64,000 nucleotides of DNA from a virus (lineage: Duplodnaviria; Caudoviricetes): positions 1,432 to 65,431 of the IMG/VR virus record IMGVR_UViG_3300036823_000389. One strand, given 5' to 3'. This document shows positions 6,259-43,235 of this stretch, piece by piece. Both the position numbers and the translations under genes were made by a program. The notes beneath the pieces are model-generated. The model did not search any database. It saw only the letters and a program-made list of their open reading frames with translations, and was not told the DNA's origin. Position 1 is the stretch's first letter; every line of letters starts with the position of its first letter.

Positions 6259-6963
6259 ATGTGCCGCGACTATGAACGCGAACGCGCCTGGCGCGAGCAT
6301 CAGAAGCTGCTGGAGCAAGAGTACCAGCGCCGCCAGCGCCAGCAGCTCAAGATCGTGTCGCCGGCAGCCGAGCCGAATACCTATCAGGCCTCGGACACCG
6401 CCCCGACCGATCCCGCGCCGATCATCCGCGCAGCCGAGAGCGGCTATGGCTGCGAGCTGGCCACCGCGCGCTGGTGGTTCGTGCCGGACACCTATCGCGG
6501 CACGCTCGACGACTTCCGCAAGAAGGAGAAGCTCAGCACCTTCAACGCGCGGAGCGACCGCATCGCCAAGTCACCCACCTTCCGCAAGGCCTTCGTCTCC
6601 GGCCGCTGTCTCGTACCGGCGTCTGGCTGGTACGAATGGACAGAGCCGCCGGGCTGGAAAAAGGGCACACCCAAAACCAAATGGCGCTTCACGATAGGAG
6701 ACCACGAGCCGATTTTCCTCGCGGGCATCTGCAGCCATATCCAGAACGGCGGCGATCCGACCTTCACCTTCGCATTGGTGACGCACGCGGCTGGCGCCGG
6801 CGTCGACGCGTATCATGATCGTGCGCCTTTCGTGCTGCCACCCGAGACATGGGCCGATTGGCTTGATCCAGGCTACGACGCGCCGCTCGATCTCATACCG
6901 GAAGCGAGCGCGCCCGATGCATACCGGGTCGAATACGTCAGTGGGACAGGGCCGGCGGACTAA
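6259..6963 (+). CDS. SOS response-associated peptidase (SRAP/YedK/HMCES abasic-site protection protein)
   Basis: Starts MC (catalytic Cys2); TFNARSD, RCLVPASGWYEW, HDRAP, WLDP motifs. Confidence 0.9.
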   Translation: MCRDYERERAWREHQKLLEQEYQRRQRQQLKIVSPAAEPNTYQASDTAPTDPAPIIRAAESGYGCELATARWWFVPDTYRGTLDDFRKKEKLSTFNARSDRIAKSPTFRKAFVSGRCLVPASGWYEWTEPPGWKKGTPKTKWRFTIGDHEPIFLAGICSHIQNGGDPTFTFALVTHAAGAGVDAYHDRAPFVLPPETWADWLDPGYDAPLDLIPEASAPDAYRVEYVSGTGPAD

Positions 6964-6983
6964 CTCCGCCAATTGGCGGAGTT
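6962..6983. repeat. Dispersed palindrome copy 1: AACTCCGCCAATTGGCGGAGTT
   Basis: Perfect 22-bp palindrome; the core recurs at 31876, 33153 and 42879. Confidence 0.9.
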
Positions 6984-41586: not shown

Positions 41587-43235
41587 CAGTCTGCGGCCTC
41601 CGGTTTTGGGTTGGTGCGAAGGAGGAACGCGGGGATTTCGTTCGGCTCGCGTTTGGCGACCGCCGGCCGTGGTGGCGTCGGTGCCGCGGACGTCGGTATT
41701 GGCGCAGCATCCTGCAGCACGAGAACATCGGAGACCTTGCGCGCCGTGCTGGGCCCGAAGGGTTTGAACTTCCCGCCCACCCAAAGCCCGCCAAGACACG
41801 GCGGCCCGTCTCGCTCCTCACCTTCAGGAGTTGCGGCACTCTCTCCGCCCGTCACGACCGTAGAGGTGTTGCCGACCTCGCTGTCGTTGCGATCCGGTTC
41901 GCGCCCGGCTGAACCGGCAACCGTCACTGCATTCTGTCCGTCGAACACCTCACCGGTATCCGGATCGTGACTGGATGCGCCTTTCACTGGCGCTTCGTTC
42001 CCCCAGGCATCCCAGCCGCGGCGGGCGCCGCGCGCGTTGAGCTCAATCCTCGGCAGATTGGGAAAATGCTCTTCAACCCATTCGTGCACATCCGGCGGCT
42101 TAGCCGAATGTCTGTCGCGCTCGGATTCCGCCAGATGCGGCCGCGCCGCGAAGATAACACTTTCGCCTTGCGTACCCATGGACGGCGCCGGAACGTGACC
42201 TCGCGTGGCAATGATCAGGTGCTCGCTGCGGTCACGATTCCAGAAACCGGTTCCGGCGGGCCCGACTTCTGCAAACACGCGACCTTTCAGCTCTAAAGCC
42301 AATGCGAAATTCGCGGGAACATCGATCGCAACGATGTCTTTGACCCATGTGCGCATGGACTTGAATTTGAAGCCCCAAGCCTGAACGACACGAAGCGCAT
42401 CGGGGAGCATTGGGTTGGTCGCCCATAACAGCAGCAAGCAATCGTCGGCTGCGATATCGCCGACAGGGCGCGCCGCGATATCGTCGGTGGTGCTGGTGGG
42501 GTAGTGATTGGCCGCTGCGCGGTCCTGACCGGTTTGTTCGTTGTAGACCTCGAACCGCCATTCGGGGTCGGCCAAGATGACCCCATATTTTTTCGTCGGA
42601 AGTGCTGTCTGTTTGGCACCGAGCGATTGCTCACGCGCCGTGCGCGAGGCGCGCTTCAGGATCGTGCGCAACACCCTGACGGCGCCGCTCTCCGCCTGCT
42701 GCGCGATCTGCATCTGGAACGCTGGCGTGAGCTTCGCGGCCTGCGCCGCCATGTCGACGGCGATTAATCCGCGCTCCATGGCCGCGGCAAGTTCGGGGGT
42801 TGCGTCCCGCTGGACCTGTTTCGCGCGTTCGACAGAGCGCGGCTTGACGTTGAGCATTCGCGCCGCGTCGGCCACGGAAATACCGCCAATTGGCGGAGTT
42901 TCGTCGGAGGGCCGGCCAGGCGTGAGGGTCGATATTCTCGCGGCCACAGACTGCCGCTGACCGTCGGTCATGTGCCGACGATGCAGGTTCTCCGAAATGA
43001 CGAAGTCGAGCGCTTCGCGATACGTCCCATGAAACGTCTCCAGCGGGGTCACGTCCACGTCCGCAGCCTCGCCGGCACGGTACCGATTGCGGCCGTCGAG
43101 TATCAGACCTTCGAACAACCAAATCTTGTTGCGGATGCCATGCTGCTTCACGTCGGCCACGAGATCGTCGAATGCCGGACCTTCGATCAGTGGGAAGACA
43201 TTAGCCAATGGGTGAAAACCGAGGGTCTCTCTCAT
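41586..43235 (-). CDS. ParB-N/HTH domain fused to an MT-A70 adenine methyltransferase
   Basis: HPLANVFPL, ILDGRNRYRA, SENLHRRH, HTH VADAARMLNVKPRSVERA; ILADPEW, LLWAT, WGFKF, HSAKP, RIELNAR, GWDAWGNE. Confidence 0.88.
   Translation of the reverse strand: MRETLGFHPLANVFPLIEGPAFDDLVADVKQHGIRNKIWLFEGLILDGRNRYRAGEAADVDVTPLETFHGTYREALDFVISENLHRRHMTDGQRQSVAARISTLTPGRPSDETPPIGGISVADAARMLNVKPRSVERAKQVQRDATPELAAAMERGLIAVDMAAQAAKLTPAFQMQIAQQAESGAVRVLRTILKRASRTAREQSLGAKQTALPTKKYGVILADPEWRFEVYNEQTGQDRAAANHYPTSTTDDIAARPVGDIAADDCLLLLWATNPMLPDALRVVQAWGFKFKSMRTWVKDIVAIDVPANFALALELKGRVFAEVGPAGTGFWNRDRSEHLIIATRGHVPAPSMGTQGESVIFAARPHLAESERDRHSAKPPDVHEWVEEHFPNLPRIELNARGARRGWDAWGNEAPVKGASSHDPDTGEVFDGQNAVTVAGSAGREPDRNDSEVGNTSTVVTGGESAATPEGEERDGPPCLGGLWVGGKFKPFGPSTARKVSDVLVLQDAAPIPTSAAPTPPRPAVAKREPNEIPAFLLRTNPKPEAAD
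42879..42900. repeat. Dispersed palindrome copy 4, inside the ParB/MT-A70 gene: AATACCGCCAATTGGCGGAGTT
   Basis: Core CCGCCAATTGGCGG, just before the HTH-coding segment. Confidence 0.88.

Follow-up and report, generated by a model that had tools for sequence, protein, structure and literature searches.

The 64,000-nucleotide stretch analyzed here (the window; positions 1,432 to 65,431 of the IMG/VR virus record IMGVR_UViG_3300036823_000389) is a prophage that carries four copies of a palindrome with the core CCGCCAATTGGCGG. One copy lies inside the gene for P0001, a protein in which a ParB-like N-terminal domain (NTD) and a helix-turn-helix (HTH) domain are fused to an MT-A70 methyltransferase. 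We found that a palindrome recurs at the same place in homologous fusion genes, and that its bases vary together with residues of the recognition helix of the fusion. The HTH of the fusion very probably binds these sites. Taken as a whole, the explanation that the palindromes are the cognate double-stranded DNA sites of the fusion, including the module logic set out below, seems to us probable, with real room for doubt. That the fusion then loads or spreads in a nucleotide-dependent manner and methylates in cis is a possibility that we hold with some reserve.

An exact search placed CCGCCAATTGGCGG at 6966, 31880, 33157 and 42883, and a search of the window with one mismatch allowed returned nothing beyond these four. 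In 100 dinucleotide-preserving shuffles of the window the core averaged 0.03 copies, and none of them held four. When the four were aligned, three proved to share the 22-bp palindrome AAC(T/C)CCGCCAATTGGCGG(A/G)GTT, the copy at 42883 having a variant left flank (AAATA). All are followed by TC, the right side on the + strand being an invariant GTTTC, and the fullest form of the palindrome reaches 26 bp, GAAAC(Y)CCGCCAATTGGCGG(R)GTTTC. The original prediction, made from the letters of the window, had placed the palindrome at these four positions and noted the trailing TC; exact search and alignment agree with it on both. The copies and the gene of the fusion lie as follows:

Copy 1, 6962..6983: begins at the stop codon of a gene for an SOS-response-associated peptidase (SRAP); the genes on its two sides converge, and the left end of the prophage is close by.
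Copy 2, 31876..31897: in a small Cys-rich open reading frame (ORF), where it is read ETPPIGG; its end lies upstream of a DUF6456 gene, 46 nt from the ATG (31829).
Copy 3, 33153..33174: within the final codons of an SNF2 helicase gene; its end lies upstream of an initiator gene, 21 nt from the ATG (33131).
Copy 4, 42879..42900: inside the ParB-HTH-MT-A70 gene; the core encodes P114-G118, in the linker preceding the HTH.
41586..43235, minus strand: ParB-like NTD/HTH/MT-A70 fusion gene, 549 residues (P0001).

On the gene strand, copy 4 reads GAAACTCCGCCAATTGGCGGTATTTC. Copy 3 is read KPRQLAG, in a different frame from copy 2, and the SNF2 protein ends in …KPRQLAGLAPQEPTP and a stop. Read on the gene strands, the contexts, distances and reading frames first described for the four copies hold.

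We searched the host assembly (3,131,349 bp in 69 contigs, 65% G+C), in which the window is C39:44170-108169. The only exact copies of CCGCCAATTGGCGG in the whole assembly were the four in the window, with 0 in the remaining ~3.07 Mb; outside the window, two sites assembly-wide matched with one mismatch (C31:6479 and C34:23259). The count in host DNA had been set beforehand as a refuting test, in the form of a motif equally common in the host. Because the only exact copies in the assembly are the four in the window, this refutation fails. The four sites are private to the prophage.

The copy inside the fusion gene falls in the linker of P0001, the parts of which are:

P0001 residues 1-104: ParB-type nucleotide-binding fold.
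P0001 residues 105-120: disordered linker.
P0001 residues 121-211: HTH domain, with the helix K131-A138 (KPRSVERA).
P0001 residues 217-414: MT-A70, with DPEW at 223-226.
P0001 residues 430-533: disordered tail.

The linker was compared across viral relatives found in a profile scan of IMG/VR. The best 80 of 578 relatives were taken by whole-protein matches, so that the set consists mostly of MT-A70 fusions. The gene frame was found by a motif pattern in 66 of the 80 loci (14 were dropped), and removal of duplicates left 64 distinct linker segments of 126 nt, running from the Box-III-like motif to the HTH; segments from the same loci served as controls (n=2452). Many rows of this set are close kin. 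The DNA-level comparison includes the contig of the homologue P0004 and covers relatives other than the two closest homologues (73% and 65% identity). With at most one mismatch allowed, palindromes of at least 20 bp were present in 39/64 linker segments, against 0.8% of controls. At thresholds of at least 16 and at least 14 bp the counts were 45/64 (controls, 8.5%) and 56/64 (controls, 21.5%). Nearly all of these linker palindromes are centred on AATT, with cores GC(A/C)AATT(T/G)GC or NNCAATTGNN. The AATT and the inner stem are the most conserved part in the family; the outer arms vary and are symmetric out to 24-30 bp. By these counts, the copy inside the ParB-HTH-MT-A70 gene is a family-wide feature.

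The N-terminal module itself is more widely used. With residues 1-210 as query, 152 proteins were found at E up to 1e-5, and the partners of the module are MT-A70 (most), Dam-like PF05869 and N6_N4 PF01555. An NPPF-type methyltransferase is the partner in G061, a 4.8-Mb genome reached through the DNA pattern, which encodes a 682-residue homologue (51% identity over residues 4-174). In the G061 gene the same codons (EETPPIGGVS) contain the palindrome in its full 26-bp form, GAAACTCCGCCAATTGGCGGAGTTTC, and 908 bp further downstream the gene has a second core; that genome has no other copy. A single-protein scan of the contigs of other genomes found no close relatives of P0001, and among 60 host-genome relatives 12 matched P0001, in the MT-A70 part only.

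Several observations indicate what the in-gene copy is conserved for. The core GCAAATTTGC is read A-N-L in most genes and Q-I-C, in another frame, in L164 and L165. The codons of the window copy are rare (ACT, CCA and ATT account for 7% of Thr, 13% of Pro and 14% of Ile codons, counted over 18 genes of this phage), the G061 site uses the same codons, and the residues encoded by the site fall in the sole disordered stretch of the N-terminal half. A protein-level explanation of the in-gene copy was rejected because of the two frames, the rare codons and the disordered linker. We then counted pairings in 58 palindromes of at least 14 bp. Among them were 617 Watson-Crick positions and 65 non-Watson-Crick positions, the latter comprising 33 of transversion type, 21 antisense-only G·U and 11 mRNA-type G·U. 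An mRNA helix is disfavored because mRNA-type G·U, the class that it would favor, is not enriched. Since the site is read in two frames, uses rare codons and carries mismatches that are not of the G·U type, the constraint is on double-stranded DNA. The claim of the original prediction that DNA and not protein is constrained is borne out by the frames, the codons and the mismatch types.

The same counts bear on the possibility that the palindromes are RNA hairpins, that is, intrinsic terminators or processing or translational pause sites, and not protein-binding DNA. All copies can indeed fold into a stem of 9 bp capped by an AAUU loop (-18 to -24 kcal/mol in 55-nt stretches), and copy 1 lies between convergent genes. 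Moreover, the 20-mer ACYCCGCCAATTGGCGGRGT was found, among the matches listed, in more than 118 stretches of very diverse genomes, which tells against a site dedicated to the fusion; of the 116 scorable 20-mer sites among those matches, 89 are preceded by an A-run or followed by a T-run, and 44 are flanked by both. Because they are flanked by A- and T-runs, the 20-mers in unrelated genomes can be taken as ordinary bidirectional terminators. The prophage copies differ from these. The flank on the gene (minus) strand is GTTA, with no T-run, and a terminator scan that covered copies 1-3 (copy 4 being mid-gene) called none of them. Three copies lie in coding sequence or right before a start codon, where termination would be harmful. 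It is the AATT loop and the inner stem that are most conserved, with variable outer arms; sense-strand G·U is not enriched (11 sense, 21 antisense, 33 other); and the fold z-scores are modest (-0.6 to -2.7). We rejected the terminator reading because of the flanks, the context and the mismatch types, and RNA hairpins of any kind seem to us very improbable.

As a separate observation, the exact 20-mer ACCCCGCCAATTGGCGGGGT occurs as a bidirectional terminator stem-loop in L016-L133, which come from widely separated phyla and include Pseudomonas, Aeromonas, Bacteroidota and Patescibacteria. Its recurrence is that of a convergent terminator sequence, and pattern matches alone do not mark relatives.

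If the fusion reads the palindrome, the bases of the site should follow the residues of the recognition helix. The helix could be parsed in 60 of the 64 genes, and four rows were dropped. Position 7 of the helix (R137 in P0001) is Arg in 15/15 genes with G at ±3 on both halves and in 0/42 genes with T at ±3; the remaining three, with different bases there, lack Arg. At position 3 (R133), Arg is present in 46/46 genes with GC at ±4/5. Conversely, GC at ±4/5 was found in 0/11 genes without Arg at position 3, and three genes with Arg at this position have other, mostly doubtful, palindromes.

Since the rows are related to each other, a tree of 62 rows was built from columns outside the linker and the HTH. 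On this tree the four traits (G at ±3, Arg at position 7, GC at ±4/5 and Arg at position 3) change 8-12 times. Independent pairs on well-supported branches changed the same way in 5/5 cases for G at ±3 and Arg at position 7 (sign test, p 0.0625, the best possible with five). For GC and Arg at position 3, a median of 4.5 pairs changed the same way, 0 the opposite way and 1.5 were unchanged. Clear local cases of co-change are L164/L165 versus L166-L169, L156 versus L192, and L157 versus L190.

An instructive case is the closest syntenic relative, L235, a metagenome contig of 57.7 kb, 20 kb of which was read. It encodes a fusion 60% identical to P0001, and its gene order is the same as that of the window from the early genes to the terminase. 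The in-gene site of L235 is GAAACTCCCTCAATTGAGGGAGTTTC, and its helix is GKASVERA, with Arg changed to Ala at position 3. Another copy of the same sequence, 6.5 kb further downstream and just upstream of a DUF6456 homologue, is orthologous in position to copy 2. Because both sites carry the identical variant and the helix carries Ala, two separate sites and the reader residue have changed in concert in L235. Copy 3 sits in a stretch of ~24 bp that is absent from L235, so that this copy is a lineage-specific gain or loss.

The co-variation suggests that the bases of the palindrome are tied to the fusion's own HTH, and recognition of the palindrome by a symmetric dimer of the fusion is supported by the pattern of the aligned sites and helices. 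These data also bear on whether the sites serve some other protein (a host factor, the CI-like repressor, the O-like initiator or a further HTH protein of the phage), in which case the location of one copy in the ParB-methyltransferase gene would be incidental. The phage does encode a CI-like repressor (52000-52620) and an HTH_36 initiator. However, the palindrome is found at the same linker position in homologous fusion genes of otherwise different phages, and its bases track the recognition-helix residues of the fusion itself. In addition, the initiator has its own iterons inside its gene, and the host chromosome has 0 copies. We therefore regard another reader as improbable.

The architecture of P0001 was examined by profile and fold searches. 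Residues 217-414 match MT-A70 (PF05063) in Pfam with 66 bits against a cut-off of 23.9 (E 5.4e-18). In PHROGs, the full-length protein belongs to phrog_21315 (3.2e-69), and residues 12-204 match a 'ParB-like partition protein' (1e-10). A PDB profile search with 25 homologues found Noc (7ng0, 2.8e-4, positions 17-195), Spo0J (1vz0, 5.4e-3) and ParB (7bnr, 0.01), and for the C-terminal half MTA1 (3.2e-18) and METTL3 (1.6e-14). With the whole protein, the top 50 Foldseek matches were all MT-A70, with METTL3 at 9e-13. The AlphaFold2 model of residues 1-213 has a predicted local distance difference test (pLDDT) score of 91.4, residues 112-114 in the linker being below 50. Foldseek with this model found Spo0J (1vz0, 1.8e-6), ParB-CTPgS (7bnr, 2.2e-5), KorB (8qa9, 2.3e-5), Noc (7nfu, 2.4e-5) and Caulobacter ParB-parS (1.2e-4), and all matches up to E ~0.3 were ParB, Spo0J, Noc, KorB or ParB-like (pNOB8 ParB-N, PadC). 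The fold match reaches through the HTH (189-225 aligned columns), and most matches span the nucleotide-binding domain and the HTH. The N-terminal half of P0001 is thus predicted to fold like ParB, KorB and Noc, and the architecture first proposed, a fold of this type with an HTH fused to MT-A70, is upheld by both kinds of search.

The GxxR motif (the Box II P motif, as defined in PMC12704722) is present as G48-R49-N50-R51, with G48, R49 and R51 invariant in 30 homologues. N83, R86 and R87 of a Box-III-like motif are likewise invariant in the 30, and the acidic residue beside N83 is variable (E/K/L/A). Motif IV of the predicted methyltransferase is D223-P-E-W226 instead of DPPW, as had been noted at the outset. 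ADPEW is the commonest form among the aligned homologues (10/25), DPPW occurs once, and more divergent forms occur too. By this alignment DPEW appears to be the family norm, with no bearing by itself on activity.

A homodimer prediction for residues 1-425 scored 0.74, the best of three controls scoring 0.00; a score of 0.74 was reached by 20/30 proteins solved as same-chain pairs and by 1/23 solved as single chains. At least 93% of contacts are shared between runs, the partner pLDDT is at least 79, and the interface is formed by MT-A70 residues 274-360. This result may reflect memory of, or likeness to, solved MT-A70 pairs, and it is not proof of binding. In the models, then, the methyltransferase takes the place of the usual dimerization domain and is itself predicted to dimerize. 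A search for a second member of the ParB-HTH module elsewhere in the genome found none.

We also noticed a short peptide at the C-terminus of the fusion:

41616..41639, minus strand: C-terminal peptide E533-R540 (EIPAFLLR) of the fusion.

The end of P0001, ...EPNEIPAFLLRTNPKPEAAD, resembles the last conserved peptide of the host FtsZ, which ends ...EQFEIPAFLRRQSN (the host ftsZ gene is at 919-2463 of L234, minus strand). The peptide is also present in the closest homologues P0002-P0004, P0006, P0051 and P0055; by a strict pattern it occurs in 5/66 distinct family members, with near variants in others. The papers listed for the string IPAFLR concern FtsZ, proteins acting on division, or degrons. 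The tail of the fusion may mimic that of FtsZ, to bind FtsA-type partners or as a degron. In P0002 (73% identical), an FtsK gamma domain (PF09397), a second DNA-reading module, lies between MT-A70 and an IPAFLRR tail.

How many sites a genome carries was assessed in two ways. Within ±10 kb of the gene, with a 16-mer and up to two mismatches, 13 further copies were found over all loci, against 0 for the reversed control; the convincing extra copies are those of the window (3), G061 (1), L177, L179, L219 and perhaps L173. The 10- or 12-mer core was also searched for in nine whole viral records: six of these (including complete genomes of 52-66 kb) have one copy and three have two, with 0 in controls. 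The usual state is one site, in the gene, and four is the upper end among the genomes examined. Of the 'dispersed' sites of the original prediction, the four in this prophage stand; dispersal is not the family norm, 6/9 whole records being single-copy. The proposed comparative test came out positive: palindromes lie inside the genes of other fusion phages, they co-vary with the HTH, and in some phages they recur elsewhere in the genome.

The placement of the sites raises the possibility that a KorB- or BisD-like regulator uses them as operators. The main role of the fusion, or of its ParB-HTH half, would then be to control transcription, through autorepression by a roadblock in its own gene and by timing the expression of the initiator and of the DUF6456, HNH and terminase genes, and the methyltransferase would act everywhere, independently of the sites. 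Copy 3 stops 21 nt short of the initiator ATG and copy 2 stops 46 nt short of that of DUF6456, and the extra copies of L177 (16 bp before the start of a gene that follows primase), L179 (in a divergent intergenic region) and L173 (~150 bp before the small terminase gene) also suit a regulator. So do the commonest state, a single in-gene site, the presence of KorB 8qa9 among the best fold matches, and the description, in bioRxiv 10.1101/2024.09.16.613209, of a ParB-like clamp as a long-distance activator. On the other hand, a crude scan found no sigma-70-like promoter near copies 1-3, and several extra copies are deep inside genes, such as the L219 copy in a helicase-N6_N4 methyltransferase gene and the second copy of G061. 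Moreover, the module has partners from at least four unrelated methyltransferase families, which is hard to explain if the cargo is irrelevant to the sites. The operator reading seems unlikely to us. Docking and regulation need not conflict, as the in-gene site would also act as a roadblock, giving an autoregulation compatible with docking.

If, as we favor, the palindromes are docking sites, the module could work in the following way. A symmetric dimer held by the MT-A70 domains would place two HTHs on the two half-sites, with R137 reading G at ±3 and R133 reading GC at ±4/5. The copy in the linker-coding sequence would be the primary, ancestral site, keeping site and reader linked in mosaic phage genomes, and the remaining three would be lineage-specific additional sites. 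In this way, the methyltransferase would be brought to phage DNA, and the host chromosome would offer it no docking site. If the NTD, with its conserved nucleotide pocket, works as in ParB, KorB and Noc, it would gate loading and release. A methyltransferase pair in place of the C-terminal dimer would give the topology of a ParB clamp. Gated loading would allow methylation in cis around the sites; transcription through the sites would be obstructed incidentally. The residues of the nucleotide pocket are strictly conserved, and the module is reused with methyltransferases of at least four families; both observations suggest that the NTD is more than a spacer and that the cargo is intended for DNA carrying the site. 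We infer the binding, the dimer geometry, the nucleotide dependence, the spreading, and the target and purpose of the methylation. It is also conceivable, as a speculation that we would put forward only tentatively, that the whole family consists of 'self-addressed' enzymes, with an AATT-centred loading site in the gene, nucleoside triphosphate-gated loading, marking in cis only that spares the host, and a two-Arg code by which sites could be predicted and retargeted.

A number of findings weigh against docking and loading by the fusion. Some concern the protein. The Pfam ParB models gave no match to residues 1-217, even at E 10, and because of this the ParB membership of P0001 rests on the profile and fold searches. 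The canonical C-terminal dimerization domain is absent, a long helix (186-211) running into MT-A70. No ParA was found in the window by a search with PF13614 (AAA_31), the one model used, which matched at C58, C34 and C39:140193, all outside the window; the original prediction had likewise seen no ParA. According to PMC12704722, a survey of ParB-fold fusions, 17/28 purified proteins did not bind nucleotide in vitro, and nucleotide specificity could not be predicted from sequence or AlphaFold3.

Others concern the sites. Two named phages with distant homologues were examined: in phage ppBeUSDA76-1 (31.5% identity) we found no convincing in-gene palindrome, and in phage Rivra (26% identity) no clear equivalent site, only a 19-bp odd palindrome after the HTH. 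The latter, GGTGGGGAA-A-TTCCCCACC, lies at ~38296-38314 of Agrobacterium phage Rivra (L246), in a ParB(DGHHR)-type methyltransferase gene, as a single copy in a 44-kb genome. The sign test of co-change is above 0.05. Furthermore, the site and the helix codons lie within ~100 bp, so that recombination could co-transfer both and inflate the number of independent co-changes. The single in-gene site of most relatives fits autoregulation as well as genome-wide loading, and no common context for the extra copies was found among the phages that carry them. Overall, the interpretation first proposed keeps its constraint on DNA, its private sites, its protein architecture and its comparative test, and loses dispersal as the norm and CTP (cytidine triphosphate) as a predictable nucleotide.

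The other genes and features of the prophage that concern the sites are these:

6010..6963, plus strand: SRAP gene; its stop codon carries copy 1.
31317..31829, minus strand: DUF6456 gene (the putative late regulator of the original prediction), which copy 2 precedes and which is followed by the HNH and terminase genes.
31792..32094, minus strand: small Cys-rich ORF that contains copy 2, from reading of the sequence.
32091..33131, minus strand: O-like replication initiator (HTH_36), with matches to PHROG replication initiation families; starts 21 nt downstream of copy 3.
33128..34930, minus strand: SNF2-family helicase gene; its 3' end carries copy 3.
52000-52620, plus strand: CI-like repressor (HTH_3 and Peptidase_S24).

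A family search with a longer form of the Cys-rich ORF (31792-32229) gave no match. The G+C content falls from 0.69 to about 0.60 past position 2000, and a host alkyl sulfatase gene ends at 1859. The prophage is ~59 kb long if its left end is put near 2.5 kb, and its sites are at 7.0, 31.9, 33.2 and 42.9 kb. The minus strand carries its early, replication, packaging and tail genes, which are read leftwards. Within the initiator gene there are four inverted-repeat iterons, TTCCACC-N3-TGGAA, at ~32756-32852 (minus strand), spaced by ~20-40 bp; these are probably the phage origin, in a lambda-like arrangement. The early operon holds three methyltransferase genes, all on the minus strand: that of an 816-aa enzyme (phrog_116) at 45218-47668, that of P0001 at 41586-43235, and a helicase/N6_N4 methyltransferase fusion (phrog_16) at 39082-41799. 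The syntenic relative L235 has neither the phrog_116 enzyme nor the helicase/N6_N4 fusion of that operon. For a small early ORF (51377-51691, minus strand), PHROGs gives a weak match of 38 residues to a portal protein (E 6.7e-4).

If the palindromes are docking sites, an abundant class of phage proteins gains a testable mechanism, that of a sequence-addressed methyltransferase, and the ParB switch is in use beyond partition or repression. The two-arginine code then makes direct predictions for mutagenesis. Some long-unexplained dispersed palindromes of phages would also be explained.

The best-known relatives of this arrangement are the ParB-parS and Noc-NBS systems. ParB-family proteins, chromosomal and plasmid, are CTP-dependent clamps that load at 16-bp palindromic sites, and the specificity of ParB versus Noc is set by a few recognition-helix residues. 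The fusion resembles ParB and Noc in its N-terminal nucleotide-binding fold with GxxR and Box-III-like N..RR, followed by an HTH, and in a palindromic site confined to its replicon and often found within the gene or next to it. Its specificity, judged by co-variation, likewise tracks a few residues of the recognition helix. The fusion differs in that it comes without ParA and has a methyltransferase instead of the canonical C-terminal dimerization domain. Its site also differs in sequence, is AATT-centred and is usually one per genome. A second relative is KorB, with its operator OB, of plasmid RK2, which also combines a ParB fold with an HTH and uses dispersed palindromic operators on a mobile element. 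KorB has no enzyme domain and works with KorA, whereas the cargo of the fusion is a methyltransferase and a conserved site lies inside its gene. At most of its sites KorB has no partition role (structures 8qa9 and 8qa8).

Fusions of this architecture class have been described before. PMC12704722 (PNAS 2025) reports ParB-fold/methyltransferase fusions enriched in phages and prophages, with a suggested role 'perhaps in anti-defense', and ATP, CTP or GTP binders among ParB-fold fusions. PMC4738411 describes phage 'ParB-terminase large subunit loci' and also ParB-type HTHs joined to Dam-like enzymes, whose predicted role is to modify phage DNA as it is packaged. P0001 belongs to the same domain architecture class as the fusions of both papers; unlike the loci of PMC4738411, its gene is not beside the terminase gene but ~11 kb away from it. 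We found no DNA site for these fusions in the literature: 'palindrom' and 'parS-like' are absent from the searchable text of PMC12704722, and that of PMC4738411 makes no mention of a site. The ParB-fold/methyltransferase fusions are reported to be common in phages and prophages (PMC12704722), and the papers searched give neither their DNA target nor their function.

Dispersed repeats in mycobacteriophages, as presented in PMC4351075, offer a further comparison. Cluster O phages carry 17-bp dyad repeats, at >30 copies per genome and partly in genes, and encode a ParB-like protein. The authors predicted a dimeric repeat-binding protein and, in that text, did not connect the repeats to the ParB-like protein. 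These repeats differ from the sites of the window in their 7-3-7 architecture, their sequence and their copy number. The stoperators of Cluster A phages, described in the same text, resemble the sites of the window in that one operator is present in many copies genome-wide, including away from promoters. However, a stoperator is asymmetric, follows the direction of transcription and is the target of the immunity repressor, whereas the sites of the window are symmetric and track a ParB-type HTH.

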